From the NCBI GenBank assembly GCA_965200895.1, contig CBDAVM010000002.1, positions 415,077 to 479,076 of the forward strand: DNA of 64,000 bases, in the 5' to 3' direction. A program made the translations under genes and the position numbers. Below the pieces are notes generated by a model that saw only the letters and a program-made list of their open reading frames with translations, was not told the DNA's origin and made no database searches. Of this stretch, positions 17,740-55,599 are shown one piece after another (within the stretch, counting starts at the first letter, position 1; every line of letters starts with the position of its first letter). The stretch is from Vicinamibacterales bacterium (lineage in GTDB: Bacteria; Acidobacteriota; Vicinamibacteria; Vicinamibacterales; UBA8438).

Positions 17740-17997
17740 GAGTCTGCGCCACGGGAACGGTGCAGGCTCCTGGTCAGGCCCGGTTGGGCGGCAATCGGAG
17801 CCGCAGGCGACGATTGTCGGGCCAGGAGCTTGCGCCGCGGAACGCAGCGAAAGCGAAGTGCCGAGGCGCAAGGTCATGGAACGGGGGATGCGCCGGAATG
17901 CCGGGCCCGCGAGGGCGTTTCGGGGCGCTGGTCATTGCCAGTCCTGCCCGTCGTGCGGGGACGGGCGCAGAGTGCACGCAGGAAGGTGGAGAAGCAG

Positions 17998-27334: not shown

Positions 27335-27400
27335 GGTGGCACTCCCGAACCGCGGCGTGGGTGTCATGGTCCGTCGCTCTCGGTGCATGGTGGCGCTCCC
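27307..27400. repeat. tandem duplication (period 54 bp) of the D-aminoacylase translation-initiation region
   Basis: GTGTCATGGTCGATCGCTCTTGCTGCATGGTGGCACTCCC (27307..27346) versus GTGTCATGGTCCGTCGCTCTCGGTGCATGGTGGCGCTCCC (27361..27400). Confidence 0.85.
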
Positions 27401-27481
27401 GGGCGCGAATCCGGCTCGAGTCCGGAAGCGCAAGTATAGTTTTGCGGGCGCCGCATCCGGCGCCGGAGGGGAGAAACGGAG

Positions 27482-28405: not shown

Positions 28406-28642
28406 GGACATCCCGGCGACCGGCCGGAGAGCTTGCAGAGCCACGCGCCCTCGGCGGCGTGCGCGGCGTTGACGATGCGCCGCGCACGCACCACCGCTTC
28501 CGAACGACGGAACCTTCGTCGCCACGCCCCGAATCGAAGGAGCTCCGTCTCGCGTGGTGACGGGCATGATGCGCATGACGGGTGCATCTCTGCGCTTTCG
28601 GAAGAGTAAAGGGCGCCGCCCCGGATGGCGTCAGGAGGCTAC

Positions 28643-30067: not shown

Positions 30068-30073
30068 TGCCGT

Positions 30074-30103
30074 CCGGCGGTCGGAGCTTTTCTCGACCGC
30101 CGG
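30074..30103 (+). terminator. 10-bp stem-loop immediately after 28643..30067
   Basis: CCGGCGGTCG-GAGCTTTTCT-CGACCGCCGG. No strong U-tail. Confidence 0.35.
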
Positions 30104-30282
30104 CAGGAGCATCTTGAGGACCGGCGCGGCGAGACGTGATGCACGGCCCGGCGGTACGGGGCTTCCTGGCGACCGACGCGACGGGTGGTCCCCGGCTTCA
30201 CGCAGCGTGAGCGGCCGGACCGGTGCCGTCAGCGCTCTGTAGTTGCACACCATGTCGTCATTTTTCGTCTATTCTTGACGGC

Positions 30283-31437
30283 ATGGTTGGCGCCTTCAAC
30301 CGCCTGATCCGGCCGCCGGAGCAGAGCTTCTTCCTGCTCGGGGTGCGGGGCGTCGGCAAGAGCACGTGGGCACGCGCGGCCTTCCCGGACGCCGTCTACC
30401 TCGATCTGCTCGACGAGCGGCTGTACCAGGATCTGCTGGCCGACCCGTCGCTGTTCGCCCAGTCCGTCCAGCACCTCGACCCGGGGCGCCGGGTCGTCGT
30501 CGACGAGGTGCAGCGGCTGCCCGCGCTGTTGAACGAGGTGCACCGGCTGATCGAGACCCGCCGGCTGCGCTTCGCCCTGCTCGGATCCAGCGCACGCAAG
30601 TTGAAGGCCGCCGGCGTCAATCTGCTGGCCGGTCGGGCGCTGCCGAAGACCATGTTCCCGCTCACCGCGGCCGAGCTTGGCGACGCCTTCGACCTCGAGC
30701 GCGTGCTGCGCCACGGCTCGATTCCGCTCGTCTGGACGAGCGCCGACCCGCGCGCCGTGCTCGACGCCTACGTGCGCCTCTATCTGCGGGAGGAGATCCG
30801 CGCCGAGGCGCTGGTGCGGAACCTGCCCGGTTTCGCCCGCTTCCTGCCCGTGGCGGCGCTGTTCAACGGCCAGGTCGTCAACGTGTCCGGCATCGCCCGC
30901 GATGCCGGCGTCGCCCGCGCCACCGTGCAGGGGTACCTCGACATCCTGGAGGACACCCTTCTCGTGCACCGCCTGCCGGCGCACGAGGCGCGCGTGCGGG
31001 TGCGGGAGCGCCGGCTGCCGAAGCTCTACTGGGTCGACCCCGGCCTGGTGCGAGCAGTCAAGCGCCAGTTGGGCGATCTCGCCGTCGAGGAGCGCGGGCC
31101 GCTGCTGGAGTGCTGGGTGGTGACGACGCTGCGCGCACACGCCGAGGTCGGCGACCTCTGCGACGAGATGATGTACTGGGCGCCGCACGGGTCCGGCGCG
31201 GAGGTGGACGTCCTGCTGCGGCGCGGCGGCGAGTGGCTGGCGGTCGAGGTGAAGGCGACCGACCGCTACCACACGGGTCTGCTCAAGGGGTTGCGCGCCG
31301 TCGCCGCCCTGCCCGGCCTGGCGCGGCGCGTGCTGGTCTACACCGGCGACCGGTCGTTCCGCACTGCGGACGGCATCGAGATCTGGCCCGCCCTCCGCTT
31401 CGCGTCATCGGTCGCCGCCGGGGAACTCTGGCCATAG
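30283..31437 (+). CDS. AAA+ ATPase with DUF4143 domain
   Basis: Met 21 of ORF 30223..31437. Walker A GVRGVGKST, Walker B VVVDEVQ. The C-terminal region (W.P.....EVD.LL) is typical of AAA_14/DUF4143 proteins. Confidence 0.85.
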   Translation: MVGAFNRLIRPPEQSFFLLGVRGVGKSTWARAAFPDAVYLDLLDERLYQDLLADPSLFAQSVQHLDPGRRVVVDEVQRLPALLNEVHRLIETRRLRFALLGSSARKLKAAGVNLLAGRALPKTMFPLTAAELGDAFDLERVLRHGSIPLVWTSADPRAVLDAYVRLYLREEIRAEALVRNLPGFARFLPVAALFNGQVVNVSGIARDAGVARATVQGYLDILEDTLLVHRLPAHEARVRVRERRLPKLYWVDPGLVRAVKRQLGDLAVEERGPLLECWVVTTLRAHAEVGDLCDEMMYWAPHGSGAEVDVLLRRGGEWLAVEVKATDRYHTGLLKGLRAVAALPGLARRVLVYTGDRSFRTADGIEIWPALRFASSVAAGELWP

Positions 31438-31486
31438 GGAAGGCGTCGCCGGCGTCGATCCGATCGCGCGCCCCGAGGCGCAGCGG

Positions 31487-33475
31487 CTACGGCAGCGCCA
31501 GGGCGATGAGTTCCGGCCTGACCGTCTCGCTGTTGCCGGCGCCGACGGCCACCACGATGTACTGCTTGCCCTCGTGCAGGTAGGTGATCGGGTTGCCGTA
31601 GGGGATGGCGGGCAACTCGACCGAACCCAGGTACTCGCCGTTGTCCTTGTGGTACGCGCTGATGGCCTGCGCCGAGGCGATCTGGTCCTCGACGTAGCGC
31701 GCGCCGGAGTTGACGACGAGCAGCGTCTTCGTCACCAGCGGGCCGCCGCCGTGCATGCCGCCGTGGCCGCCCAGCGCCGGCAGGTTCAGATGCCGGATGG
31801 CCGGGTGGTTGCGCGGGCCGTCGCCGTGCGGGGCCATCCAGACGTGCTCACCGGTGTTCAGGTCGATGGCCGTCACGCGCTTGTAGGGCGGCTTGACCAG
31901 GGGCAGTCCGCGCGGGCCGGGCACGGGGACCGCCCACGGATCGGTGAAGTAGCCGACGGTGGCCGGCGGCGGGTACTCCACCAGCTCCACCGCCCGCAGC
32001 CGCGTCTGCGAGGGAACGAAGAGTCGGCCGGTCTCCGGATCGACGGCCGTGCCGGGCCAGTTGACGCCCCCGCCGGGACCGGGCGACTGGATGATCGGCC
32101 GCCCCTGCCCGCGCACCGGCGGCGGCGTGAAGATGGGGCCGAGCTGCGCCCGGCCGGCGATGCGGACGGCCTCCGCACGCAGCTCGGGCGTGAAGTCGAC
32201 CAGGTCGTCGATCGTGATGCCCTGCAGATCGAACGGTGCCGGCTTCGTCGGGAAGGGCTGTGTCGGCGAGTACCATTCGCCCGGGACGTTGCCTTGCGGC
32301 ACCGGCCGTTCCTCGATCGGCCACACCGGCTCGCCCGTCACGCGGTCGAAGACGTAGGTGAACGCCTGCTTGCTCGACTGTGCGATGGCCTTGATCTTCC
32401 GCCCGTCGACCGTGATGTCCAGCAGATTGCCGGCGGTGGGGAAGTCGTAGTCCCACAGGCCGTGGTGGACCGCCTGGAAGTGCCAGATCCGCTCCCCGGT
32501 CTCGGCGTCGACGCAGATGATGCTCTCGGCGAACAGGTTGTCGCCGGGCCGCATGCCGCCGTACCAGTCGTTGGTCGGCGTGCCGGTGGGTAGGTACACG
32601 TACCCGAGCTCCTCGTCCACCGCCATCGTGCCCCAGACGTTCGAGTGCCCGCTGTAGCGCCACGACTCGCCGTGCCAGGTGTCGGCCCCGAACTCCTCAC
32701 CCTGCGGGATGGTGTGGAAGATCCACTTCATCTCGCCGGTCCGCGCATCGAAGCCGCGCACGTGGCCCGGATCCGCCTCGCGGCGGGTGAGGCTCGTGTC
32801 CTGGACGATGCTGCCGACGATGACCGTGTCGCCGGCAATCGCCAGCGGCTGCGAGTGGGTGAAGCGCGAACGGTCGATGGCGCGGCCCAGCGACGCGCTC
32901 AGGTCGACGGCGCCGTCCGCCCCGAAGTCGGCGTACTGCTCGCCGGTCCGGGCGTTGAGCGCCACGAGCAGCAGGTCGTGGGTGGCGATGAAGATGCGGG
33001 CGTCATCACGCGCATCGTCCTCCCAGTAGGAAACGCCGCGGTGCTGCCATCCCATGTTGGCGGGCCGGTCGAGCCGGTCGTAGGTCTGCGGGTCGTAGGA
33101 CCAGACGAGCTCGCCGGTGCCCGCGTCGAGCGCCGCCACCTGCCCGAGCGACGTGCTCAGGTAGACCAGACCACCGATCATCAGCGACACCGACTTGAAC
33201 GGCCCCGGCCGGATGTCGTCCCGCTCGTGCGTCACCTCGGTCTCGATGGACGTCCAGCGCCAGGCGATCTCCAGGTCGGTGAAGTTGGCCGGCGTGATCC
33301 GGTCGAGCGGCGAGTACTTCGTGTTGGCTGCGTCGTGGCCGAAGTGCCGCCACTCGGTGTCGGCCTGCGACTGCGCGGCGGCGGGGCGCGGCGCAGTGAT
33401 CGCCACTGCGACCGTCAGCACGGTCAGTACGGCGGTGCTCGTCGCGTGGAGTCGAAGCCCCCGGCCACTGGTCAT
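31487..33475 (-). CDS. PQQ-dependent quinoprotein glucose/quinate-dehydrogenase-like enzyme (soluble, signal peptide, no N-terminal TM domain)
   Basis: Met 94 of ORF 31487..33754(-), GGGAGG upstream. Motifs: W.HFGHDAANTKYSPL, VHHGLWDYDFP, GGVNWPG. Confidence 0.85.
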   Translation of the reverse strand: MTSGRGLRLHATSTAVLTVLTVAVAITAPRPAAAQSQADTEWRHFGHDAANTKYSPLDRITPANFTDLEIAWRWTSIETEVTHERDDIRPGPFKSVSLMIGGLVYLSTSLGQVAALDAGTGELVWSYDPQTYDRLDRPANMGWQHRGVSYWEDDARDDARIFIATHDLLLVALNARTGEQYADFGADGAVDLSASLGRAIDRSRFTHSQPLAIAGDTVIVGSIVQDTSLTRREADPGHVRGFDARTGEMKWIFHTIPQGEEFGADTWHGESWRYSGHSNVWGTMAVDEELGYVYLPTGTPTNDWYGGMRPGDNLFAESIICVDAETGERIWHFQAVHHGLWDYDFPTAGNLLDITVDGRKIKAIAQSSKQAFTYVFDRVTGEPVWPIEERPVPQGNVPGEWYSPTQPFPTKPAPFDLQGITIDDLVDFTPELRAEAVRIAGRAQLGPIFTPPPVRGQGRPIIQSPGPGGGVNWPGTAVDPETGRLFVPSQTRLRAVELVEYPPPATVGYFTDPWAVPVPGPRGLPLVKPPYKRVTAIDLNTGEHVWMAPHGDGPRNHPAIRHLNLPALGGHGGMHGGGPLVTKTLLVVNSGARYVEDQIASAQAISAYHKDNGEYLGSVELPAIPYGNPITYLHEGKQYIVVAVGAGNSETVRPELIALALP

Positions 33476-33548
33476 CACATCCTCCCTGGTCACGAGTCGG
33501 GCGGCCCGCGCCCGGCCCGGTAGATCCGAAGCGTGGCCGCGCGGACGG

Positions 33549-34252
33549 TCAGTCGACGTATCGGCGGCTGAACGCCGGGGCGAGGCGTACGGCGAGGGCG
33601 TCGGCGCGTTCGGAGCGGGCGATGTCGTCCGGTTCGCGCAGCAGTTCCTCCAGATCGCGCGGACGCACGCCGGGCACCGCCGCGGACTCACCCGCTTCGC
33701 GCCAGCCGTCGGGTTCGGAGATGAGAACGACAGCGGTTCCTTCCGGCCGGGCATCGGTGCCGCCGGTGCGCGACCAGACCCGGACTTCGGGTACGTCGAG
33801 CCGTCGATATGCCGCGAGACGTTGCTCCGTCCGTGTCGGATTCAACGGCGTGGTGTCGATCTCGATGGCGAGGTCGGGGGGCGGGGCGGGGCGGCCGGCC
33901 CTCTGAGCGCCTCCAGCTTGGTCGGGCGCACGAAGAGCTGCACGTCCGGGTGACGCCGGTCCTCCTCATCCTCGATGGGCGCGGTGGTGCCGATGTGTCC
34001 GTGTGCGCCGGAGCGCCGCCGCAACGCTTCGAGCAATCTGAACAAATCGTCGGCCCGCGGGTCGTGATAGCGGCCGTTGGGCACCGCGTCGACCTCCAGG
34101 GCGCCCCGCGCGCCGTTGTAGCACGCGCTGCGCGGCAACTGCCTGCTGTCCATCAGTCGGTCGTAGCACTCGACCGGCATCGGGAAGATCAATGTGCCGT
34201 GCTCGAAGCGCAGATCGGAGTGCTCGTTGAAGACTGTGGTCTCGGCGGTCAT
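33549..34252 (-). pseudogene. Uma2-family (DUF820) endonuclease, frameshifted in a C/G-rich run near 33850-33900
   Basis: ORF 33842..34252(-) holds FEHGTLIFPMP...RHPDVQLFV. The next frame holds PPPDLAIEIDTTPLNPTRTEQRLAAYRRLDVPEVRVW (ORF 33549..33845 plus its upstream extension). Confidence 0.6.
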
Positions 34253-34353
34253 GCTGGACTGGTTCGATTCGTGCCGTCACCGTCCGCTATCGATCGTGTG
34301 ACGCCCGGTATTGTACTCGACGAGCGGGGCGGCGCAGCCCGCTTGCCCCGCTT

Positions 34354-34902
34354 GCTGCCGCAACCGTTCGGCGCGTAGTCTCCGGCGGCGTCGAGCGCGA
34401 AGAGAACAGGCTGAAATGTTGAGTATGGTAGTACCTTCCGCGCAACACGGCCCTTCCGAACGGCGAAGACCAGCGAGTCGGAACGCCCGAGCCCCCGACA
34501 GAGATCGAGAATCCAGAGCGCCTGCCTCGACAGCGGCACGCGATGCTCGCGGCCGTTCTTCATCCGCTCCTTCGGAACGGTCCACAACCCCGACTCGCAG
34601 TCGATCTCCGACCACGTCGCGCCGGCGGCCTCGTTGAAGCGACACGCCGTCAACACGATGAACACCAGCAGGAGCCGCACCGCCTCGTCGACGTCGTCCG
34701 CCGCCCGTACCGCCCGCACCGCGTCGGCGACCCGCTTATGCGGGAGACTCGGATGGTGATCCGGTTCCCGCTTCACCTTCGGCAGCAGCACCTTCAGCTC
34801 GGCCGCCGGGTTGTCCTGCCGGTACTTGTGGGCGACGGCGTGCTGCATCACGCTGTCGAGGCGCTGACGCAGCACGTACCCCTTCGAACCGCGGCCCTTC
34901 CA
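34354..34902 (-). pseudogene. P4-type tyrosine integrase, internal fragment (N-terminus and catalytic C-terminus missing or degenerate)
   Basis: Residues 80-262 of ORF 34249..35139(-): HAVAHKYRQDNPAAELKVLLPKVKREPDHHPSLP...LLLVFIVLTACRFNEAAGATWSEIDCESGLWTVPKERMKNGREHRVPLSRQAL. The expected HG.R box reads NGCG. Confidence 0.7.
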
Positions 34903-34911
34903 GCGCCGGGG

Positions 34912-34985
34912 GAGCTCCGCCCCCGTGCTACACCTTGTGATATCCAATCGCGCGCTTCCCGCGATCGGGACGCTCGAACGGCGTC
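34912..34985. repeat. dispersed repeat R1, copy A (74 bp; 73/74 identical to 41266..41339, same orientation)
   Basis: GAGCTCCGCCCCCGTGCTACACCTTGTGATATCCAATCGCGCGCTTCCCGCGATCGGGACGCTCGAACGGCGTC. Contains the palindrome GGGACGC-TCGAACG-GCGTC(C/T)C. Confidence 0.9.
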
Positions 34986-35020
34986 TCAGCCCCGACACCG
35001 CGAGCCTCCGGAGGCTCGCC

Positions 35021-35714
35021 TCACGCTTCTCGGCCAAGCTTCTCGGCGGCAATGCACGTCGTCGCGCAACCGCAGAACGGATCGAGAACGATGTTCCCCT
35101 CGTTGCTGGACGCTTTGACGATGCGCTCGAGGAGAGCAAGAGGCTTCTGCGTCGGGTAGCCGGTCAACTCTGGTGTCACCGGTGGTTGGACGTCCGTCCA
35201 GACACTGCCGAGTCGAGCCCCTTTCTCGAGGTCGCAGAATCGTCGGCGCTCCAGGCGACCGTCGTCATGGATGACGACCTTCCCGTCCTGGTATTCGGCC
35301 TCCAGCCGGTCCTTCGTGATACGCCAACCACTCGGGTGAGGATTCTCGTACCCACGCCACGAATAGCAAAGGTTCGGACGAGGTCCCATGTTGATCCCGC
35401 AGAAGTGGGCGATGCCGGTATATCAGCATGTAGGCCTTGCTGTGAGTCGATCCCGCGACCCGGACGACATCAGCGACGGCAGGATGCGGCGCCGACATCA
35501 AGTCGACCTCCTCAAGCTTCACGTCGTCGAGCGTCCACGTGTCCTTGAACGCGGCCCCGGCAGCCTTGCTGCCGATGGGCGCCGAGTACATCTTGTTGCT
35601 GTTGAACGGCGGGTCCAGGTAGATGAGGTCGACGCTCTCACTGTTCATCGAGTGCAGGACATCCAGGTTGTCCCCCGTGAACACCGTCCGGTTCGCCCAG
35701 TTCGGTACGCCCAC
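35021..35714 (-). pseudogene. N4/N6 DNA methyltransferase (PF01555-type, DPPF motif), with frameshift/internal deletion and truncated 3' end
   Basis: ORF 35265..35714(-): FTGDNLDVLHSM..SVDLIYLDPPFNSN. ORF 35021..35389(-): [35 protein letters not shown]. The central block and the end after KLGR are missing. Confidence 0.7.
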
Positions 35715-35904
35715 CTACAGCCAACATACCGATGCACATCCGGTTCCCTCGTCCGCCGCGGTCGCCAACCGCGGGTGCCCAAACACCACCCCTCAACCGC
35801 CGCCGCGACACCGACGCCATCCGCGCCGTGCGCGGCACCCACAGCAAGCCGTTCCCGACGCCGGGCAACCGCGAGATCGACGGTCGCATGATCATCGGGG
35901 CAGC

Positions 35905-36147
35905 GTCCTGCTCATCGTGCGCGGCGACAGCATGGCCGCAACCTGCATCCACGACGGCACCATCGTCGCCGTCAAGAAGACGCCCGACGCGCGGTCCGGA
36001 CAGATCGTCGTCGCCCGGTTCGGCGACGCACACGCAGGCACCGGCACGTCAACACAGGCCATCCGGTCCACGACACACCTCGACATGCCGCCGTTCCACG
36101 GGTGCGATCTTGTACAGTACGTCGTGATCAACCGTCGGTTGAAGTAG
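35905..36147 (+). pseudogene. LexA/S24-family peptidase, C-terminal fragment
   Basis: Tail of ORF 35623..36147: LLIVRGDSMAATCIHDGTIVAVKKTPDARSGQIVVARFGD. No intact wHTH domain; the Lys region is degenerate. Confidence 0.55.
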
Positions 36148-36151
36148 GATC
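36091..36151. repeat. dispersed repeat R2, copy A (61 bp; 59/61 identical to 42499..42559)
   Basis: CCGTTCCACGGGTGCGATCTTGTACAGTACGTCGTGATCAACCGTCGGTTGAAGTAGGATC. Covers the 3' end and stop of the S24 fragment. Confidence 0.9.
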
Positions 36152-36286
36152 ATTCGGCCGCATCTTCAGCGCCGGCCCCGCCCGCGAGATGCAGTTCGGC
36201 CTGCGCTACCGTTTCTGAACAGCCGGCCGGCGGCGACCGTGGCGACGGCTGCAGTCCGCGGCGCCGGATGGAGGGGACCAGAACCG

Positions 36287-37306
36287 ATGTCAGACCAGCT
36301 TCGCAAGCCCGCAGCGCCGCCCAGGCAGGGGCTCGCGCCGGTCGTGTCGCGATACAACAAGCTGCACGACGAGACCGCCGGCGGCACCGTGGATGCGCGC
36401 AACGCGCAGCGCATGGAGATGGTGAACGACTATTACGACCTGATCACCGACTTCTGCGAATATGGGTGGGGCGACTCCTTCCACTACGCCCCGCGCAAAC
36501 GGGGCGAATCGTACCGGGACTCGATCGTCCGCCACCAGGTGTTCCTGGCCAATGCTGTCGGGCTGCAGCCGGGCATGCGCGCGCTGGACGTGGGTTGCGG
36601 CGTGGGCGGTCCGTTGCGGACGATAGCCAGGGCCTCCGGCGCTTTCGTCGTCGGACTCAATAACCACGCGTATCAGCTCGAAAAGTGCAAGGCCTACAAC
36701 CTGGAGGCGGGCTTGCAGCATCAGACGGAGCTCCTCAAGGGCGACTTCATGAACATTCCGGCGGAGGCCGAATCGTTCGACGCCGCCTACGAGATCGAGG
36801 CCACCGCCCACACGGCCGACAAGGCGGGCGTTTTCTCCGAGATAGCACGGGTTCTGAAGCCTGGCGGCCTGTTCGGGGGCTACGAGTGGTGCATGACGTC
36901 GCGCTACGACCCGGACAATGCCGAGCACCGCGCCCTGAAGAAAGGCATCGAGCGGGGCAGTGCCGTCCCGGACGTGGCGGCCCCCGCAACGGTGCTCGCC
37001 GGCCTCGAGGCCGCTGGTTTCGAGGTTGTGGAAGCACGCGATCTGGCCCCGGAATCGGACCCGGAAACGCCCTGGCACAGCATCCTGGATCAGCGCGAAG
37101 TCAAACCCGTAAGTTCGCCGGAAACGACCGGCGGCCGGCGCGTCGCCGCCGTGCTGGCGCAAGTCCGGCAGGGCCTCGCCTTCGTGCCCAAGGGCACCTC
37201 CGAGGTGATGGCGGTGCTCGACTGTCTCGTGAACAGCACCAGGGACGCCGGCCGCCTCGGCATCTTCACACCGCTGTTCTATTTCAAGGCGCGCAAGCCC
37301 GCGTAG
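36287..37306 (+). CDS. sterol C-24 methyltransferase (ERG6/SMT1) homologue
   Basis: Met 17 of ORF 36239..37306, after GGAGGGG. Collinear over its full length with ERG6 as I recall it: YYDLITDFCEYGWGDSFHYAPR, LDVGCGVGGP, VVGLNNHAYQ, YEIEATAHT, VLKPGG, YEWCMT, and C-terminal IFTPLFYFKARKP. Confidence 0.85.
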   Translation: MSDQLRKPAAPPRQGLAPVVSRYNKLHDETAGGTVDARNAQRMEMVNDYYDLITDFCEYGWGDSFHYAPRKRGESYRDSIVRHQVFLANAVGLQPGMRALDVGCGVGGPLRTIARASGAFVVGLNNHAYQLEKCKAYNLEAGLQHQTELLKGDFMNIPAEAESFDAAYEIEATAHTADKAGVFSEIARVLKPGGLFGGYEWCMTSRYDPDNAEHRALKKGIERGSAVPDVAAPATVLAGLEAAGFEVVEARDLAPESDPETPWHSILDQREVKPVSSPETTGGRRVAAVLAQVRQGLAFVPKGTSEVMAVLDCLVNSTRDAGRLGIFTPLFYFKARKPA

Positions 37307-37354
37307 GCGCGCGCCAAGCTCACCCCTGACGTGCCCGGCTGCGAGGCAAGCCGC

Positions 37355-37406
37355 TCGAGTGATCTCGACGCGATGTCAAGAGAGCTCTGTGACGCACCGC
37401 ATCCTG
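37355..37406. repeat. dispersed repeat R5, copy A (52 bp; 44/52 identical to 39754..39805 inside the FN3 gene)
   Basis: TCGAGTGATCTCGACGCGATGTCAAGAGAGCTCTGTGACGCACCGCATCCTG. The minus-strand reading GCGASQSSLDIASRSLE matches GCGSSSSSLDVASRSLD in the FN3 gene. Confidence 0.7.
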
Positions 37407-37418
37407 CTAACTAACTAA
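37407..37418. other. CTAACTAACTAA: stop codons in all three frames on both strands
   Basis: TAA x3 on the plus strand and TAG x3 on the minus strand, each staggered by 4 nt. An isolated AT-rich 12-mer in GC-rich DNA, directly abutting the hairpin at 37420..37437. Confidence 0.9.
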
Positions 37419-37419
37419 A

Positions 37420-37437
37420 GCCGCTGCGCCCAGCGGC
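37420..37437 (-). terminator. intrinsic-terminator-like hairpin downstream of the NHLP precursor gene
   Basis: The minus strand reads GCCGCTG-GGCG-CAGCGGC followed by TTTAGTTAGTTAG, about 130 nt after the precursor stop codon. Confidence 0.45.
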
Positions 37438-37565
37438 GGCGGGCGGCCTGTACGATGTGCCGGGCGAGACGGGGGTCTCACCGCCTCGCTCGCGGAGGGG
37501 GGGAGCTCAACCCCCTGCCGGTCCTGATCTGAAGGACGCTCTCCGGATTGCCTTCAGCGATCAAC

Positions 37566-37841
37566 CTAGCAGCACAACTCACACCAGCCGCCGGCGACGT
37601 TCTCGAGCTGTTCCTCGTCGAGCTCGGGCGTTGGCGGCAGGGCGATGTGGGCGTTCTGCATGTCAATCTGATGCACGTGCACCCGCATGCTGTCCGGCAA
37701 CTCCACGCCGAATTCGCGGCTGATGACGGCCTTGGGGTCGGCCACGAACGCCGCCCGGAAGTCGGTATCCTCGCCCGCCCTGTCGACGATCTTCTTCCGG
37801 ATGTCCTCCGCCGTCACCATCATGCTCTCGAAATTCCCCAT
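37566..37841 (-). CDS. NHLP (nitrile-hydratase-like leader peptide) family RiPP precursor; core WCELCC
   Basis: Met 46 of ORF 37566..37976(-). GGAGG lies 6 nt upstream. Leader: MGNFESMMVTAEDIRKKIVDRAGEDTDFRAAFVADPKAVISREFGVELPDSMRVHVHQIDMQNAHIALPPTPELDEEQLENVAGG, followed by WCELCC and the stop. Confidence 0.85.
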   Translation of the reverse strand: MGNFESMMVTAEDIRKKIVDRAGEDTDFRAAFVADPKAVISREFGVELPDSMRVHVHQIDMQNAHIALPPTPELDEEQLENVAGGWCELCC

Positions 37842-37904
37842 CTTCATCCTCCTTGCATGCACGGATGCCAGCCTTGCTTGCACGGAAGGCCAGCTTCCAT
37901 ACCC

Positions 37905-37954
37905 AGTGGTCTCCGAGCGAGACAGATGCGGCGTTCTGCATGCCGACCCCGCAC
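37905..37954. repeat. dispersed repeat R3, copy A (50 bp; about 90% identical to 41681..41730, two compensating 1-nt indels)
   Basis: AGTGGTCTCCGAGCGAGACAGATGCGGCGTTCTGCATGCCGACCCCGCAC. Contains the palindrome GTCTC-CGAGC-GAGAC. Confidence 0.8.
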
Positions 37955-38027
37955 CGAAACCCGACCACCGTACCACGTCTTCCGAACGTCAGGTCGCCCG
38001 CTTCCACGGAAATCGTCCACCCACACC

Positions 38028-38640
38028 CTGCTCGTGACGGTCTGCAACGACTATCTCGACCGCCGCCACGACGACGTCAACCGGCGCCGCATCGCGTCCG
38101 GCGCGCCGTGGATGCTGCTGGCCCCGCGGGGTGAGCGGCCACTGGTCGGACCGGTCTTCCGGCCGGCGGAGCAGGGACCGTGCTGGGCCTGTCTCGTCCA
38201 TCGCCTGCGCGGTCACCGGGAGATCCACGAGTTCGTGCGCAGGCTCGCCGGCGACGACCGCGCGCCGGCGCCGCGGGTGTCCGAGCCGGTCGTCGTGGAC
38301 GCGGTGTACGACCTGGCCGCAGCCGAGATCGCCAAGTGGCTGGTCCTCGACGCGCTGGCGCCGCTGCACGAGAACGTCATCTCGCTGGACGTCCTCGGCC
38401 TGCAGAGCGGGCAGCACGTGACGGTCCGCCGCCCCGCAGTGCCGCGCCTGCGGCGACGAGGCGCTGTATCGCCCCGACCGCCCGCCGGCGCCGGTGCGGT
38501 TGCGGCCGAGTCCCAGGCACGCGCGCAGCAGCGGCGGGGTGCGCTCGGTGCCCCCCGAGGTGACCCTGGCCCGTTACCGGCACCTGATCAGTCCGGTCCC
38601 GCCGGTAACAACCGCTGCGCCACGCCACACCACACCCCGG
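38028..38640 (+). pseudogene. TOMM-type cyclodehydratase (E1-like docking domain fused to YcaO), truncated at 5' and 3' ends and frameshifted
   Basis: Frame of ORF 37548..38678: LLVTVCNDYLDRRHDDVNRRRIASGAPWMLLAPRGERPLVGPVFRPAEQGPCWACLVHRLRGHREI...HVTVRRP. After a 1-nt shift in a C-run (38431..38435) the sequence reads RRPQCRACGDE...GGVRSVPPEVTLARYRHLISPV (frame of ORF 38494..38736). Confidence 0.7.
38234..38368. repeat. dispersed repeat R4, copy A (135 bp inside the cyclodehydratase remnant; 133/135 identical to 63190..63324)
   Basis: CGTGCGCAGGCTCGCCGGCGACGACCGCGCGCCGGCGCCGCGGGTG...GCGCTGGCGCCGCTGCA. Encodes RRLAGDDRAPAPRV(S/A)EPVVVDAVYDLAAAEIAKWLVLDALAPL. Confidence 0.9.
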
Positions 38641-38674
38641 CCCTTCAGATCGGAACCTCCACCGGAAACCGACT

Positions 38675-38707
38675 GTGAACCGACTGTACAGTACAGTCAG
38701 GTTTCAC
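38675..38707 (-). terminator. imperfect 15-17 bp palindrome about 40 nt downstream of the FN3 gene stop
   Basis: GTGAACCGACTGTAC-A-GTACAGTCAGGTTTCAC. The minus strand is followed by AGTCGGTTTCC. Confidence 0.35.
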
Positions 38708-38747
38708 GAATCGATGGCGGTTGCGATCCGCTGTGAACGCGTGGGCC

Positions 38748-41243
38748 TCAGCGTCTTCTCTGTCTGAAACGGGTCCCGGCGATGATCATGAACGCGGCAA
38801 GCACCAACTGTGCGAAGACCGGGAGGGCCGGCACCGGGGCTGCATGCCGGAGAATCTCAGCGTCAGCGGCTCCCACTGTCAACTGAAAATCATCGCTGGC
38901 AGTGCCGCCAGCGGCGTCAGTTGCCGTGATCTCCAGCCCGAGCACGTGTTCGCCCTCCGGGCCCGTAGTCAGCGTCAAAACCTCTCCGGACCAGCCTCCG
39001 GTGACCTTGTTGCGCGCCACGGTGTTGATCGGGCCAGTTCGCACCTGACCGGTGCGGTTGTTCGTCGTGGTAACCATCACGCCGTACGTCACCCCGGAAC
39101 CCGTGAAGTGCTCGCCCATGTCGAGCTCATGCGTCACGCTGTTAGCCAACGACAAATCAGAGAACTCCTGGACCAACGTCGCAGGGTCGTCGCCGTCTCC
39201 CGGGTCGTCGTCGCCGGCGCCGACCGTGAGCTCGAAGCTGTCGCTGGCGGCTCCGACGTTGTTCGACGCTGTGATCTCGAGCGTCAACTCGTGGTCGCCG
39301 GTCGGGCCGGCCGTCAACGTAAGGACGTCCTCGTCCCAAGCGCCGCGCACCTTGTTGCGCGCCACCGTATTGATTGGCGCGGTTCGGACGACGCCCGTCT
39401 GGTTGTGCGTCGTCGTGACGAGGACCGAGTACTCGAGGTTGCTGCCCTTGAAGTACTCCGTCATGTCCAAGTCGTGCATCTGGTCGTGTGCCAGCATCAG
39501 ATCCGGGAACTCGGTCGACACCGTCGCCGGCCCAGGTGTAGCGTGCACTTCGTCCGACCAGCCGCTGTTCGCCTCACCGGTCGTTTCACGGACCCGGAAC
39601 TTGTACTCCTGACCGTCGGTCAGGCCATCTATCAGAGCGGTCGTTCCAGAGACCACCACGCTTTGACTGGTGCTCCAGTCGGCCTCTTCTTCGGCCCAAC
39701 TGACCTCATAGTTCGGATCCGTCGAATCGTCGTCATCTGCAGAAGCCGTCACATCGAGCGATCTCGAAGCGACGTCAAGAGAGCTCGAGGACGAGCCGCA
39801 TCCTGACGAAGCCGCGGCACCCCTCGCTGACGCTGCTTGGGCGCGGAACCCGCTCATCTGGTTTGCCTGCCCTGACACCCAGCAGAGACGCACCTCGTTT
39901 TCCCCCACCACAGGACGGTTTTGGACGGTCGGGATCACGAGTTCGGGCGGTGTCCTTCCCGTCACTTCAACCGGGTCGCTGCAGATGTTGTCCGGCCAGT
40001 AGAGACATGCTTTGACTTGCACGACGTACACGGTGTCTGCGGTCAGTTCGAACATGCGGTACCAGCCCGCGCGTATACTGCCCGACCACTCACTCCAGTC
40101 GGACGCTGTGCTTTCTTTGTATCGTACGTGCGACCAGTGTCCTTCTTCGGTCGTGTTCCAGTCGACCTGGAGCATCGTAGACGCCTGATCCAAATGGCTG
40201 ATTCGCACATTCGTTGGCGCTGGCGGAGGGTCCGGCGGCGGACCCGGTGGAGACCCCGTCGTCGACCCTGTGGCCTCTGACGGCAGGCTGCACGTGTCGT
40301 GTGCGGTGCTCGTGCACGCACCTACCTGGATGTCGTAGCTCGTGCCCGAGATGAGATCGTAGAGGTGGGCTGTCGCTACATTCGAGAAGACGTCGGTGTA
40401 TCCCATCGGCATGTTGTTCTGGTCTGCAGGCCAGCTGTCCGATGTCTCCTTGTATCGGTAGCGCCAGTAGTTGTTTCCGTCGATGTGCCACCAGAACGAC
40501 AGCGACGATGAGCTCGCTCGCGTGAGCTCGAGTCCGGGCGGTGGTGGCACTGTTGACGCTGCCGACCACTTCCAGACGCTGGTCGCGCTGTCGAGGATAG
40601 CGCTGTCGTCCGTTGATGAACGGACGACGGTTCTGACGAACATCCGGTACGCGGTGCGTCGCGACAGTCCCGTGAACTCGTACGGCGCCGCGGTTGTGAA
40701 TCCTTTGCTGTCATCGAGCGGTGCGGTTGCATTCGTGTCGGTGTTGTACCCCACTTGGTACGACACGCTGGATGGCGGTTCTCCTTCGTTCGACCAGCTG
40801 AACCTGATGGATGTATCGCCTCCTCCGACTGGTGATATGCTTTTTACTGGAATCGATGGGATCGCTCCTTCCACAGTGGCAGATACAGCTCCGCAAACGA
40901 TTGGATCGCTATTGTCGCAGTTCTCTGCATAGACCTTGTATCGATATCCTCGCCACGCATTGATCACGTAGACGTCGTCGCTCGTGCTGTCTCTGGTTTG
41001 GTTCTGCCAGTCATCGCTTCCTCGCTGGTACCAGATGCGCACCTTCGGTTGAGGTGCGTCGTCGATCTCAACGCGGAGATCGCCTCTGACGTTCGTGCTG
41101 CTCCCATCCCCGGGTCCGTAAACCCGGGTGATCGTCGGTGCCGGGTAACTCGGTGGTGGTTGTGGTGGTTGTGCCTCGCTGGTGCCCACTGCGGGGACGA
41201 CCAGGAGCAGCGCGCACAGCGTCGTCCGGCCAGTCTTCGACAT
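38748..41243 (-). CDS. large secreted surface protein: FN3-like repeats, two tandem cadherin/Ig-like domains, IPTL/PEP-CTERM-like C-terminal sorting tail
   Basis: Met 91 of ORF 38748..41513(-). GGAGG lies 5 nt upstream. Signal MSKTGRTTLCALLLVVPAVGTSEA. Repeated W..Y.YK/Y.V.V motifs. Two ~105-aa repeats (FPDLMLAHDQMHDLDMTEYF... and FSDLSLANSVTHELDMGEHF...). Tail VPALPVFAQLVLAAFMIIAGTRFRQRRR. Confidence 0.8.
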   Translation of the reverse strand: MSKTGRTTLCALLLVVPAVGTSEAQPPQPPPSYPAPTITRVYGPGDGSSTNVRGDLRVEIDDAPQPKVRIWYQRGSDDWQNQTRDSTSDDVYVINAWRGYRYKVYAENCDNSDPIVCGAVSATVEGAIPSIPVKSISPVGGGDTSIRFSWSNEGEPPSSVSYQVGYNTDTNATAPLDDSKGFTTAAPYEFTGLSRRTAYRMFVRTVVRSSTDDSAILDSATSVWKWSAASTVPPPPGLELTRASSSSLSFWWHIDGNNYWRYRYKETSDSWPADQNNMPMGYTDVFSNVATAHLYDLISGTSYDIQVGACTSTAHDTCSLPSEATGSTTGSPPGPPPDPPPAPTNVRISHLDQASTMLQVDWNTTEEGHWSHVRYKESTASDWSEWSGSIRAGWYRMFELTADTVYVVQVKACLYWPDNICSDPVEVTGRTPPELVIPTVQNRPVVGENEVRLCWVSGQANQMSGFRAQAASARGAAASSGCGSSSSSLDVASRSLDVTASADDDDSTDPNYEVSWAEEEADWSTSQSVVVSGTTALIDGLTDGQEYKFRVRETTGEANSGWSDEVHATPGPATVSTEFPDLMLAHDQMHDLDMTEYFKGSNLEYSVLVTTTHNQTGVVRTAPINTVARNKVRGAWDEDVLTLTAGPTGDHELTLEITASNNVGAASDSFELTVGAGDDDPGDGDDPATLVQEFSDLSLANSVTHELDMGEHFTGSGVTYGVMVTTTNNRTGQVRTGPINTVARNKVTGGWSGEVLTLTTGPEGEHVLGLEITATDAAGGTASDDFQLTVGAADAEILRHAAPVPALPVFAQLVLAAFMIIAGTRFRQRRR
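39754..39805. repeat. dispersed repeat R5, copy B (inside the FN3 gene linker)
   Basis: TCGAGCGATCTCGAAGCGACGTCAAGAGAGCTCGAGGACGAGCCGCATCCTG. Confidence 0.7.
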
Positions 41244-41265
41244 CTTGACCTCCCCAGACCTCATC

Positions 41266-41339
41266 GAGCTCCGCCCCCGTGCTACACCTTGTGAGATCCA
41301 ATCGCGCGCTTCCCGCGATCGGGACGCTCGAACGGCGTC
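41266..41339. repeat. dispersed repeat R1, copy B (starts 22 nt upstream of the FN3 gene start codon)
   Basis: Identical to 34912..34985 except one T/G difference. Confidence 0.9.
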
Positions 41340-41419
41340 CCACCCAAACCCCAACACCATGTGCGCCACACTTGACCAGGGGGCTCGGCGTCCGACCCCT
41401 TCTCGACGCCCTCCAGACC

Positions 41420-41590
41420 AGCAGATCCCGCTCATCGGACCGCTGGCCGAAGTCGCCGCCGGCACGCCGATCGTCTGCGACGCCAACACCGTCGAGCGCA
41501 TGCCGGCGGCCATCGCCGACCGGTTCCGGCCCCGGCCGGACTACCTGCTCACCGTGCGCGGCAACAGCATGAACCGCACCCGCATCGTCG
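41420..41590 (+). pseudogene. LexA/S24-family peptidase, central fragment (second, independent remnant)
   Basis: Within ORF 41182..41685: QIPLIGPLAEVAAGTPIVCDANTVERMPAAIADRFRPRPDYLLTVRGNSMNRTRIV. The homology breaks off right after the GNSM serine motif. Confidence 0.5.
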
Positions 41591-41680
41591 CCGCTGAAGT
41601 GATCGAACATGTCGAGGATTCGCTCGAGCTTTCCGCGCCGAGCTCGGGGAGAGCGGCGGCAACGCGCCCCCTATATACCG

Positions 41681-41730
41681 AGTAGTCTCCGAGCGAGACA
41701 GATGCGGGCGTTCTGCAGGCGACCCCGCAC
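41681..41730. repeat. dispersed repeat R3, copy B
   Basis: AGTAGTCTCCGAGCGAGACAGATGCGGGCGTTCTGCAGGCGACCCCGCAC. Confidence 0.8.
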
Positions 41731-42055
41731 TTTCTGGACGTTCGACCGCGAGGCCAGCGCCATCACGCCGCGCGCATTCAGTGGCGGCGGGGACGGGGCC
41801 TCCATCGATCAGCTCTTCATCACCCACGCCGCGAACGACACGCTGATCGACCGCGCCGCCGAGCCCGGCCGCCTATAGCACCAGGCAGGAGTTCAGCGGC
41901 ATGATCATCGACAACAGCAGCGCCTGAGCGGCGCCACGGCCGCGTCTGAATCCACGGCCTCTGCCCAGTCGCGCTGGCCCGAGCGATACGGTCGCCGCCG
42001 TACCCGCCGTCCCGCATCACCGGTGTAGAATCACCTCAAGGGAGACACGCACGAC

Positions 42056-42421
42056 ATGGCCGACCACACTGCGCCCGCCGCCGAGCACGCAGCCAGCCCC
42101 GCAAAACCGAGACTCTCGGCCGACACCAGGTGGATCGTCACCACCGGCATCGCCCTCGGAGTCCTGCTGGTAGCTCTCACCAGCAGCGCGCTCCTGCTCA
42201 TCAACGCCCGGATCGACGACACCAACAACAACGTGCGCGAGCTCCGCACCGAGATGCACGCGATGCGTGCAGACTTGCAGACCGAGATCCGCGAACGCCA
42301 CGCAGACTTGCAGACCGAGATCCGCGAACGCCACGCAGACATGCAGACCGACATCCGCGAACTCCGCGGCATGTTGCTCCAGCTCCTCGAACGGACTGAA
42401 CCAGCCAGCCCGGTCGACTGA
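42056..42421 (+). CDS. small membrane-anchored coiled-coil protein with 11-residue tandem repeats
   Basis: ORF 42056..42421. TM segment WIVTTGIALGVLLVALTSSALLLI, then ELRTEMHAMR-ADLQTEIRERH-ADLQTEIRERH-ADMQTDIRELR. Weak SD (AAGGGAGA). Confidence 0.55.
   Translation: MADHTAPAAEHAASPAKPRLSADTRWIVTTGIALGVLLVALTSSALLLINARIDDTNNNVRELRTEMHAMRADLQTEIRERHADLQTEIRERHADMQTDIRELRGMLLQLLERTEPASPVD
42269..42367 (+). repeat. 3 x 33-bp tandem repeat (in frame, coding)
   Basis: GCAGACTTGCAGACCGAGATCCGCGAACGCCAC occurs twice perfectly, then GCAGACATGCAGACCGACATCCGCGAACTCCGC. Confidence 0.9.
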
Positions 42422-42427
42422 ACACCC

Positions 42428-42440
42428 GGGGGGGGGGGGG
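42428..42440. repeat. G13 homopolymer
   Basis: ACACCC-GGGGGGGGGGGGG-CCGGGC, 7 nt after the coiled-coil ORF stop. Confidence 0.95.
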
Positions 42441-42498
42441 CCGGGCGCAGCCCGCCACCCGCCTCGCAAATCACGCCCCGTCAGCCGCCCGCACCCGC

Positions 42499-42559
42499 CC
42501 GTTCCACGGGTGCAATCTTGTACAGTGCGTCGTGATCAACCGTCGGTTGAAGTAGGATC
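42499..42559. repeat. dispersed repeat R2, copy B
   Basis: CCGTTCCACGGGTGCAATCTTGTACAGTGCGTCGTGATCAACCGTCGGTTGAAGTAGGATC. Confidence 0.9.
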
Positions 42560-42633
42560 CGTGGGAACGAAACAGGCCAGACGCCGTAAGCCATTGTGTT
42601 TACAGGACTTACGTCAGGGTCAGACGCACCACA

Positions 42634-42804
42634 GAGCGGACGCTCGCCGAATTCGGCGAGCGTCAGGCCACGAAACAGCGTACCCGGCCGACGGGCGAAC
42701 CACTTGTGCACGGCGATGATCGGGCGGTAGTTCTGCTGGATCTGTTTCTCTCGGCGGGCCATCGCCGCAACAAACGCGATGTCGAAGTGGGCCTCGATGG
42801 ACAT
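42634..42804 (-). pseudogene. DUF1156-like putative DNA methylase, N-terminal ~57-residue fragment
   Basis: Start of ORF 42481..42804(-): MSIEAHFDIAFVAAMARREKQIQQNYRPIIAVHKWFARRPGTLFRGL (pattern REK.I....vHkWfARRP). It then runs into repeat R2. Confidence 0.45.
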
Positions 42805-42855
42805 GGCCGTCAGGCTCCTGCCGGCGGCGGAGCGGCGTCCGTGGTCGCCATCGGC

Positions 42856-45745: not shown

Positions 45746-45940
45746 GGGGCGAGGGGCCCCGACGAAACGGTCACCGGCCAATTATCTCACGGTGTCGAGC
45801 GGCGGGCCGGGTTGGCCGGACGCGCCGGCCCGGAGGCACACCGCCGGCGGCCTGCTTCGTGCCGGCGCGGCGGAACCGCGCCCCCGAAGCTGATATCGTT
45901 GACGGCTGCGGAACAGTTTTCCTGTCGGGAGGGTGTGGGC

Positions 45941-49222: not shown

Positions 49223-49233
49223 CGGCAGATCTT

Positions 49234-55523: not shown

Positions 55524-55599
55524 TGGTGAGCCGCCAGGGACTCGAACCCCGAACCCGCAGATTAAGAGTCTGCTGCTCTACCAGTTGAGCTAGCGGCCC
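55524..55599 (-). tRNA. tRNA-Lys (anticodon CUU), CCA encoded
   Basis: Reverse complement: GGGCCGC-TA-GCTC-AACTGGTA-GAGC-A-GCAGA-CTCTTAA-TCTGC-GGGTT-CGGGG-TTCGAGT-CCCTG-GCGGCTC-A-CCA. It folds as a canonical cloverleaf. Confidence 0.9.

Follow-up and report, generated by a model that had tools for sequence, protein, structure and literature searches.

The locus lies in a window of 64 kb, the whole stretch of DNA that was analysed, and comprises an intact gene of the SMT/ERG6 family of sterol C-24 methyltransferases (36287..37306, + strand; start ATG 36287, stop TAG 37306; 339 aa). The gene stands within a mosaic island of about 9 kb (33800..42850) with lower GC content (0.59–0.68) than the DNA outside (about 0.70). 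The island is bounded by a PQQ-dehydrogenase gene on one side and by an aldose-1-epimerase/TypA region on the other. The TypA protein of the window is 90–93% identical to entries named 'Acidobacteria bacterium' and 86% identical to Vicinamibacterales, and the host, judged from its sequence, can be taken to be an uncultured Acidobacteriota bacterium close to Vicinamibacterales.

The SMT gene and its protein

The GC contents at the three codon positions (0.68/0.48/0.84) mark the + strand as coding and are alike in the neighbouring genes, which agrees with the neighbour-like, GC-rich codon usage described in an earlier note on this DNA. A 290-aa ORF antisense to the SMT gene was discarded as a high-GC shadow. 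Concerning the start codon, ATG 36287 is favoured over an upstream GTG (36239) by the N-termini of the homologues P0051 and P0002. A GGAGG Shine-Dalgarno-like sequence (36270..36274, + strand) lies 12 nt 5′ of this ATG, a rather long spacing. A scan of the upstream region gave no sigma-70-like promoter, a result that is uninformative for the host phylum.

The earlier note had proposed an ERG6/SMT1-like homologue collinear with the eukaryotic enzymes and a Pfam search as a check. This search yielded Methyltransf_11 (4.7e-18) and Sterol_MT_C (PF08498; 2e-9, 37.8 bits versus a gathering cut-off of 21.7, with 59/66 profile positions), the latter at residues 280–338 (37124..37300, + strand). The comparison with Saccharomyces cerevisiae ERG6 and plant SMT1 confirmed collinearity over the whole length, with 40% identity to ERG6 in BLASTP (window residues 13–338 versus ERG6 residues 25–368, E=8e-82). 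The ERG6 query was validated, as 29/29 ERG6-numbered residues quoted in bioRxiv 10.64898/2025.12.19.695621 fell on the right letters. In the NCBIfam scan, no model, non-SMT models included, came near its curated cut-off, and an SMT model is seemingly absent from that collection; a PDB sequence search returned generic methyltransferases only (MitM and others), with no solved SMT structure among the matches.

The motifs quoted in the earlier note are all found in the translation (YYDLITDFCEYGWGDSFHYAPR, LDVGCGVGGP, VVGLNNHAYQ, YEIEATAHT, VLKPGG, YEWCMT and IFTPLFYFKARKP). The features shared with ERG6/SMT1 are the SAM motif DxGxGxxGP, GWGxxFH, E195, G217 and the C-terminal FTP motif. Translation and ERG6 alignment show the SAM-binding Region II, LDVGCGVGGP (36584..36613, + strand; ERG6 D125–P133), to be intact, with D125, G127, G129, G132 and P133 all kept, and the same holds for the Sterol_MT_C residues G333, L341, G352, F357 and P359 (ERG6 numbering). 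Unlike ERG6, the window SMT is in a bacterial context, is devoid of the N- and C-terminal extensions, and has two substitutions in Region I, Tyr81 to Cys and Phe91 to Tyr. In the SMT reaction, the methyl group of SAM, bound at Region II, is transferred to C-24 of a delta-24 sterol side chain. The aromatic Region I stabilises the carbocation thus formed, whose deprotonation leads to 24-methyl or 24-methylene sterols. Region I of the window SMT (F56–Y67, equivalent to ERG6 F80–F91; 36452..36487, + strand) reads FCEYGWGDSFHY, keeping GWGxxFH of the aromatic ERG6 motif Y81-E-Y-G-W-G-x-x-F-H-F91. Position 81, here Cys, is Tyr in 107/110 SMTs of the comparison panel, while position 91, here Tyr, is Phe in 110/110 and also in every SMT tested in bioRxiv 10.64898/2025.12.19.695621. 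The change F91Y is a conservative one; it is common to the window SMT and P0001 and occurs in none of the 110 panel sequences.

The window gene is thus placed by its sequence as a true, bacterial member of the SMT/ERG6 family. A homologue search gave 820 SMT homologues, and PF08498 was present in all of the best 120 of these 820 except the truncated P0051. In the neighbor-joining tree, which was the phylogenetic check advised in the earlier note, the window SMT nests among bacterial SMTs; the tree was rooted on ERG6, the only eukaryotic sequence included. The window SMT forms a clade with P0001 and L072 (60/60 bootstraps), whose sisters are other orphan SMTs, P0049 and P0028 (47/60 bootstraps). 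A scan of JGI metagenomes for members of the window clade gave no locus whose protein was more than 53% identical to that of the window, so it added no alleles to the estimate of selection given below. The nearest relatives lie without exception on chromosomes of bacterial MAGs, and these belong to collections with many sponge symbionts. SMTs with 44–59% identity to the window SMT occur on MAG chromosomes of Chloroflexota, Latescibacterota, Gemmatimonadota, Myxococcota, Proteobacteria, Nitrospirales and others, and the names of many of those MAGs point to sponge symbionts.

The island and the mobility of the SMT block

On the side of the island upstream of the SMT gene, domain searches revealed a tyrosine-integrase fragment (34249..35139, − strand) that covers only profile positions 20–81 of 172, a broken N6/N4 DNA-methyltransferase gene in two overlapping ORF fragments (35021..35714, − strand), and a Peptidase_S24 (LexA-like) fragment (35893..36027, + strand), a second one occurring within 41182–41685. 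The integrase fragment was the only integrase found at the island, where no tRNA target is present. An ARAGORN tRNA-Gly call (32238–32332) was considered in relation to tRNA-linked integration and rejected: its position is internal to the PQQ-dehydrogenase gene, and Rfam gives it no support.

On the downstream side, the SMT gene is followed by a gene for an NHLP-family RiPP precursor (37566..37841, − strand; TIGR03793, 73.2 bits versus a cut-off of 50.9), with a leader ending in GG, a core WCELCC and a terminator-like hairpin close by (37437–37420). Next come a truncated TOMM leader-peptide-binding/cyclodehydratase fragment (38103..38471, + strand; TIGR03882, 89.8 bits, 122/164 domain positions) and a gene for an fn3-repeat secreted protein (38748..41513, − strand), which lies in the lowest-GC stretch. 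The RiPP cluster is degraded, with a truncated cyclodehydratase as its sole remaining maturation gene. Two direct repeats were found, D1 (34912..34991 and 41266..41345, copies 96% identical) and D2 (36091..36151 and 42499..42559, copies 97% identical). Both bracket the segment, the D2 pair enclosing SMT, NHLP and fn3 genes. The second copy of D2 is fused to a DUF1156 methylase-associated fragment (42481–42804, minus strand).

Comparison with other contigs placed the same gene in different contexts. A 2.24-kb block (35890..38129), formed by the upstream region, the SMT gene and the NHLP gene, is 97.9% identical at the nucleotide level to contig L001, which has unrelated flanks and is devoid of the 3.7-kb segment 38130–41833 that includes the fn3-repeat gene. 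Contig L070 is 99.9% identical to the window up to a strain-polymorphism breakpoint placed 48 bp past the SMT stop (37354..37355), after which it carries Transposase_31, PIN toxin, DNA methylase and SIR2 genes. The first copy of D2 occurs upstream of the SMT gene in both L001 and L070. The NHLP gene is a conserved neighbour of the SMT gene in the window and L001, an adjacency that is absent from L072 and the sister SMTs. In addition, a 5′-truncated SMT paralogue, P0075, is found on the window's own contig of 2,086,339 bp.

The mobility of the SMT gene is inferred from the occurrence of the block in different contexts, and its horizontal spread is well supported. The earlier note had surmised both decayed mobile DNA and horizontal spread, and the shared block, the breakpoint and the broken integrase, methylase and S24 genes bear this out. 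Its view of the SMT gene as the lone cargo of the island was right in that no sterol partner accompanies the gene, but not in that the NHLP gene travels along with it and the island, a mosaic, also contains the fn3-repeat gene. SMT genes thus move between bacterial genomes as small solo units and can reach Acidobacteriota, which helps account for the patchy distribution of the family.

These comparisons also bear on an artefact that the earlier note had named as a danger, an assembly chimera or a contamination by eukaryotic (host) DNA joined to bacterial DNA. Such an origin would fit with SMTs being classically eukaryotic and with the island having lower GC than its flanks, but it can practically be discarded, as the 2.09-Mb contig, L070, L001 and Logan contigs of several sequencing runs all have this gene between bacterial flanks. 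Furthermore, the gene has no introns, its codon-position GC is bacterial and host-like, its nearest relatives are all bacterial, and its identity is 40% to ERG6 versus 59% to the bacterial P0002.

Sterol context, selection and probable decay

No substantial ORF of the 64-kb window contains an OSC, squalene epoxidase, CYP51, ERG4/24, SdmA/B or SHC domain, in agreement with the lack of sterol or hopanoid genes stated in the earlier note. For comparison, among 63 SMT loci of bacteria in other phyla, a squalene epoxidase-OSC fusion occurs at up to 10 kb from the SMT gene in 36, a P450 in 36, ERG4/24 in 33, an epimerase/3-beta-HSD in 28 and a Rieske protein in 26; none of these partners occurs in the 64-kb window. 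A link to OSC is known for 13/24 of the assayed bacterial SMTs (PMC10070321; follow-up bioRxiv 10.64898/2025.12.19.695621). Sterol-synthesis genes may exist elsewhere in the host genome, outside the window, though the host would seem to be without a sterol supply. Among the SMT matches listed (best 120 of 820), none was on a contig of more than 3 Mb with a TypA 88–94% identical to that of the window, and the closest complete relatives appear to be without an SMT gene.

The selective constraint on the gene was estimated from pairwise comparisons. The SMTs of the window and L001 differ by 10 nonsynonymous and 2 synonymous changes, giving an omega of 1.64 that rests on 12 substitutions only, while in about 80 other SMT pairs omega ranged from 0.06 to 0.29. 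The difference from the four closest healthy pairs is significant (Fisher p=0.003), and an omega of 1 is compatible with the data (p=0.40), the value being not significantly above 1. The comparison of the window with L072 gave 0.42 at a dS of 0.34, versus approximately 0.1–0.25 in healthy pairs at similar dS. Columns conserved at 95% or more were not avoided by the substitutions, since 2/10 amino-acid differences between window and L001 fall in them and their share of the columns is 18%. The window SMT deviates at 5 such columns, versus a panel median of 1 and a 90th percentile of 3. L072, a 74%-identical relative, has a nonsense codon (TGG>TGA) at the W of YEWCMT. It is worth noting that the Region I changes differ among the clade members: Y81C in the window, Y83C in P0001, and F80L plus G84E in L072.

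Taken together, the window SMT is a horizontally acquired orphan of the bacterial SMT family, and one that is probably drifting towards a pseudogene. The gene arrived within the small SMT-NHLP block also present elsewhere and is now stranded in the mosaic of gene remnants (integrase, DNA-methylase, LexA-like and RiPP-cluster). Since its arrival the clade has evolved with no detectable purifying selection, and the SMT is therefore probably surplus to requirements. Its function is inferred to be lost or weakened. There are 25 residues common to all functional SMTs, and the window SMT keeps 24 of them, the exception being F91 (Tyr in the window), and the catalytic potential read from these residues is such that some residual C-24 methylating activity may persist. 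At least one deviation at the same 25 residues occurs in 7/11 inactive SMTs (bioRxiv 10.64898/2025.12.19.695621), so the loss of F91 lowers the confidence in activity, leaving homology unaffected. Cys81 was considered as a proof of inactivation and rejected: it is also found in P0085, an SMT beside Steroid_dh, P450 and amine-oxidase genes at 42x coverage, and is thus probably tolerated.

The same data can be read, tentatively, in favour of a working accessory enzyme, a solo SMT passed on mobile DNA among sponge- or invertebrate-associated bacteria, where it would methylate sterols supplied by the host, the community or an unlinked pathway, with Cys81 and Tyr91 tuning product or substrate. In two diverged genomes the ORF has stayed intact, the P0001 allele was met on 21 contigs, Logan assemblies of several sequencing runs among them, nearly all functional-SMT residues are kept, and Cys81 occurs in the cluster-embedded P0085. 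Residues 81 and 83 are known to affect how many methylations take place, without activity being abolished (bioRxiv 10.64898/2025.12.19.695621). Conservation is also seen in other orphan SMTs, of which one lies between transposases, and the sponge-symbiont-rich origin of the nearest relatives would also fit. Against this stand an omega out of the range of working SMTs, the substitutions in conserved columns, with F91Y in 0/110 relatives, the nonsense allele of L072, the truncated paralogue in the same genome, the absence of sterol genes within 64 kb and the apparent lack of SMT in the closest complete relatives.

An omega above 1 for the window-L001 pair could equally reflect positive selection. 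A recruitment of the SMT to a non-sterol substrate (the NHLP/TOMM peptide or another lipid), with remodelling of its pocket by such selection, would be in line with this omega, with the alteration of a different Region I residue in each clade member and with the SMT-NHLP adjacency in both window and L001. It is nevertheless improbable, considering that the RiPP cluster is wrecked, that the adjacency is seen only inside one recently shared block, that omega does not exceed 1 significantly and L072 bears a stop codon, and that the remaining sterol-binding and C-terminal motifs are SMT-typical. Rather unlikely, too, is a scenario in which solo SMTs circulate on mobile DNA among bacteria associated with invertebrates, as 'sterol-editing' accessory genes acting on host-derived sterols; the acidobacterial clade (Cys/Tyr at 81, 83 and 91) would then not be decaying, and directional selection would be shifting its range of products or substrates. 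If this were true, bacteria without a sterol pathway could alter the side-chain alkylation of holobiont sterols.

Relation to described bacterial SMTs

Bacterial SMTs, many of them from sponge symbionts, were described and assayed in vitro by Brown, Olagunju, Giner and Welander (2023, Nat Commun, PMC10070321), in a paper whose main text makes no mention of Acidobacteriota. Compared to those enzymes and the ones in bioRxiv 10.64898/2025.12.19.695621, the window SMT has the same Methyltransf_11 plus Sterol_MT_C architecture and the same Region I–IV motifs, but it has no linked sterol pathway, sits in degraded mobile and defence DNA, carries Y81C and F91Y, evolves at a dN/dS of about 1 or above and has pseudogenised close relatives. 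Nothing here is categorically new beyond Brown et al. 2023; what is added is the decayed look of the window clade. The window SMT is an ordinary, probably dying member of an already described gene family.

Side-chain-alkylated steranes serve as fossils of eukaryotes and early animals, and thus it matters which bacteria really make the precursor sterols. The relevance of the window gene for these biomarkers, implied in the earlier note, presumes a working enzyme, whereas the clade is under relaxed selection, and as a new point it was anticipated by the 2023 assays (PMC10070321). With no pathway context and in junk mobile DNA, the window SMT evolves as if unconstrained, which should make gene-presence surveys cautious: sterol-alkylating capacity is not proved by an intact, high-scoring bacterial SMT ORF alone.

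The closest distinct relative, P0002 (contig L071 of a Chloroflexota MAG, with a homologue on L005), belongs to the same subclade. Unlike the window SMT, it keeps all conserved residues and is placed between a Rieske/KshA_C gene and an ERG4_ERG24 gene; the cluster-embedded SMTs of L071 and L005 gave an omega of 0.14. The orphan SMTs P0049 (L073) and P0028 (L075) resemble the window SMT in having no adjacent sterol genes, and P0049 has DDE transposases and toxin-antitoxin pairs at its flanks; unlike the window SMT, both keep all near-invariant residues and give no sign of decay, so an SMT without a cluster need not be a decaying one.

Finally, residue 249 is Ser in the window SMT, Asp in ERG6 and Gly in propylating SMTs. 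The formation of 24-isopropyl sterols needs Gly249 plus Phe at 81 and/or 83 (bioRxiv 10.64898/2025.12.19.695621). The window SMT has Ser249, Cys81 and Tyr83, and its lack of Gly249 indicates that, if active, it would give no 24-isopropyl sterols.

Family membership and genomic neighbourhood

The sterol C-24 methyltransferase (SMT) gene is an uninterrupted reading frame of 339 codons at window positions 36287-37306 (+). Its codon-position GC (0.68/0.48/0.84) marks the + strand as the coding one and agrees with that of the neighbouring genes, as the earlier note had held for codon usage; a long antisense ORF was rejected as a high-GC shadow. Pfam detected the class I methyltransferase domain Methyltransf_11 (4.7e-18) and, at residues 280-338, the domain diagnostic of SMTs, Sterol_MT_C (PF08498), with 37.8 bits versus a gathering cut-off of 21.7 bits. 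In BLASTP, the protein was 40% identical to yeast ERG6 and collinear with it over residues 13-338 (E=8e-82); the ERG6 sequence used was checked against bioRxiv 10.64898/2025.12.19.695621, of whose ERG6-numbered residues 29/29 fell on the correct letters. All the motifs quoted in the earlier note were found in the translation, and both domain content and collinear identity bear out its assignment of the protein as an ERG6/SMT homologue.

A search of 5.8 billion proteins (E<=1e-10) gave 820 matches, with Sterol_MT_C present in all of the best 120 of 820 except the truncated P0051. With each GTDB species represented by a single genome, a scan gave 65 SMT loci in many phyla, nearly all on MAG chromosomes. 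Among the hosts of SMTs 44-59% identical are Chloroflexota, Latescibacterota, Gemmatimonadota, Myxococcota, Alpha- and Gammaproteobacteria, Nitrospirales and Poriferihabitaceae, and sponge-symbiont bin names are common among the isolates. The bacterial origin and in vitro activity of this family were demonstrated by Brown et al. 2023 (PMC10070321), where three assayed bacterial SMTs made 24-isopropyl sterols. The window SMT therefore belongs to an already described family; its host phylum, Acidobacteriota, is not mentioned in the main text of that paper.

In 63 bacterial loci, the ORFs up to 10 kb from the SMT were clustered and representatives were annotated. The recurring neighbours were a fused squalene epoxidase-oxidosqualene cyclase (36/63 loci), a P450 (36/63), an ERG4/ERG24 reductase (33/63), an epimerase or 3-beta-HSD-type protein (28/63), VanA-type (26/63) and KshA-type (9/63) Rieske proteins and an MMPL/sterol-sensing transporter (9/63). 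The fused enzyme is a single ORF of about 1150 aa (SE + FAD_binding_3 + SQHop_cyclase_N/C), exemplified by L047:496-3954 (-), with 35 further loci among L014-L067. P0002, at 59% identity the nearest distinct homologue of the window SMT among the matches listed, is encoded with a Rieske/KshA_C gene immediately on one side and an ERG4_ERG24 gene on the other. None of the seven types was found within the 64-kb window, in line with the missing sterol pathway that had been noticed from the sequence.

A decayed island and the mobility of the SMT

The SMT lies within a GC dip of about 9 kb (0.59-0.68 versus about 0.70), together with fragments of a tyrosine integrase, two LexA-like Peptidase_S24 proteins and a DUF1156 protein, and a broken N6/N4 DNA methylase. 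An NHLP-family RiPP precursor is encoded at 37566-37841 (-) (TIGR03793, 73 bits), its leader ending in NVAGG before a six-residue Cys-rich core, WCELCC. Facing it, at 38103-38471 (+), is a truncated TOMM leader-peptide-binding/cyclodehydratase fragment (TIGR03882); the two are what is left of a thiazole/oxazole-type peptide cluster. At 38748-41513 (-), where GC is lowest in the window (0.59-0.63), a gene encodes a large fibronectin type III (fn3)-repeat protein that is secreted and looks like a separately acquired protein with eukaryote-like domains. The segment is bracketed by two pairs of direct repeats, D1 (34912-34991/41266-41345) and D2 (36091-36151/42499-42559), whose copies occur in the same order 6.35-6.41 kb apart. 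Each D1-D2 pair encloses a Peptidase_S24 fragment; two related integrative elements may have accreted here in tandem.

In contig L001, a block 97.9% identical to window positions 35890-38129 (the SMT, its upstream region and the NHLP gene) sits between DUF4920/FeoAB genes and unrelated genes. The NHLP precursor of L001 shows 96% amino-acid identity and an identical core; the 3.7-kb window segment 38130-41833, with the fn3 gene in it, is missing from L001. A 121-aa protein (ORF 42056-42421) also adjoins the SMT block in L001; in the window it contains three tandem 33-nt repeats (42248-42346, +) encoding a repeated RERHADLQTEI-type heptad-like segment. In L070, a strain variant 99.9% identical to window 26287-37354, the DNA is completely different from 48 bp past the SMT stop (window 37355 onward): L070 11076-21020 carries Transposase_31, a DUF6364-PIN toxin-antitoxin pair, two N6/N4 DNA methylases and a SIR2_2 gene. 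The site downstream of the SMT is a hypervariable defence/mobile hotspot. The earlier description of a mobile, decayed setting is correct. "Lone cargo" is an overstatement, because the NHLP gene moves together with the SMT.

Since L070, L001 and Logan contigs of several runs, all independent, carry the same SMT with bacterial flanks, an assembly chimera or eukaryotic contamination can be excluded with near certainty. In a neighbour-joining tree, the sister group of the window clade (47/60 bootstraps) also consists of orphan SMTs, of which P0049 is flanked by DDE transposases and toxin-antitoxin pairs, and P0028 has housekeeping genes around it. No contig of >3 Mb with a TypA 88-94% identical to that of the window carries an SMT among the 120 matches listed; judged from these matches, the closest complete relatives of the host therefore seem to be without it. 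Horizontal acquisition and repeated rearrangement of the SMT are well supported.

Selection and the state of the enzyme

The window and L001 alleles differ by 10 nonsynonymous and 2 synonymous substitutions, giving an omega of 1.64 (Nei-Gojobori), a value derived from a small sample of 12 substitutions. For other bacterial SMTs, about 80 pairs were compared and gave 0.06-0.29. Four pairs of similarly low divergence showed synonymous:nonsynonymous counts of 10:2, 16:7, 15:9 and 13:12, from which the window-L001 counts differ (Fisher's exact test, p=0.003). An omega of 1 is compatible with the data (p=0.40) and one of 0.17 is rejected (p=0.0007); the value above 1 could also reflect positive selection. 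Against L072, the locus of a 74%-identical relative, omega was 0.42 at dS 0.34, versus about 0.1-0.25 for healthy pairs at like dS. The window-L001 substitutions do not avoid conserved columns: 2/10 amino-acid changes fall in columns at least 95% conserved, which make up 18% of the protein.

In ERG6 numbering, the window SMT deviates at five such columns (Y81C, F91Y, L251V, E325Q and A345V); across the panel of 110 SMTs, the median number of such deviations is 1, with a 90th percentile of 3. It keeps 24 of the 25 residues listed as conserved in all functional SMTs (bioRxiv 10.64898/2025.12.19.695621). The exception is Tyr91, a position where 110/110 sequences of the panel, and all SMTs assayed in that work, have Phe. 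Each clade member is altered differently in the sterol-binding Region I: Y81C in the window, Y83C in P0001 (the SMT of L001, which also has L341V) and F80L + G84E in L072, where in addition TGG>TGA replaces the Trp of YEWCMT. The nonsense-mutated gene (L072 10001-11020) lies directly upstream of AbiEi, EcoRII (EcoRII-C) and DNA-methylase genes, a few kb downstream of a row encoding SAM synthetase, PfkB kinase and S-adenosylhomocysteine hydrolase (L072 3564-7263). Cys81 is not necessarily harmful, as it is shared by P0085, whose gene adjoins Steroid_dh, P450 and amine-oxidase genes at 42x coverage; positions 81/83 tune the number of methylations and are not essential (bioRxiv 10.64898/2025.12.19.695621).

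P0075, encoded on the same contig as the window SMT, ends in ~170 residues that are a diverged copy of the C-terminal half of the SMT, fused to unrelated sequence. Overall, an intact but mutated SMT and a truncated one are present in one genome, another mutated version in a sister genome and a nonsense allele in a more distant relative, as would be expected if the gene family were decaying after transfer into a lineage with no use for it. From these comparisons, the window SMT is probably an orphan under relaxed constraint that is losing function. The window ORF is still intact, and 21 contigs carry the P0001 allele; a functional solo SMT that methylates sterols coming from another source is conceivable, albeit rather unlikely, and recruitment to a non-sterol substrate appears very improbable. 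Were the enzyme active, Ser249 and the lack of Phe at 81 or 83 would argue against 24-isopropyl production. The sterane relevance put forward earlier needs qualification, as it assumed a working enzyme, against which omega, F91Y and the L072 stop codon speak. The gene is chiefly of value as a cautionary example that an intact, well-scoring SMT ORF does not count as evidence for sterol alkylation.

Host chromosome

Outside the island, the window is an ordinary high-GC bacterial chromosome, with TypA closest among named relatives to "Acidobacteria bacterium" (90-93%) and Vicinamibacterales (86%). Other genes include enolase, asparaginase, KatG, Fur and TypA. Two long ORF regions, 45782-47974 and 49165-50721 (480-730 aa, candidates on both strands), gave zero Pfam matches. 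A 95-nt tRNA-Gly called by ARAGORN at 32238-32332 (+) lies inside a PQQ-dehydrogenase gene without Rfam support and is probably a false positive; tRNA-Lys (55524-55599, -) is the one credible tRNA of the window. Several PQQ dehydrogenases and beta-lactamase-family proteins are also encoded: four PQQ-dependent dehydrogenase/beta-propeller genes (5826-7778, 11973-13556, 17830-19725 and 31487-33754) and three beta-lactamase-family genes form an unusually dense periplasmic oxidoreductase/hydrolase set for 64 kb.
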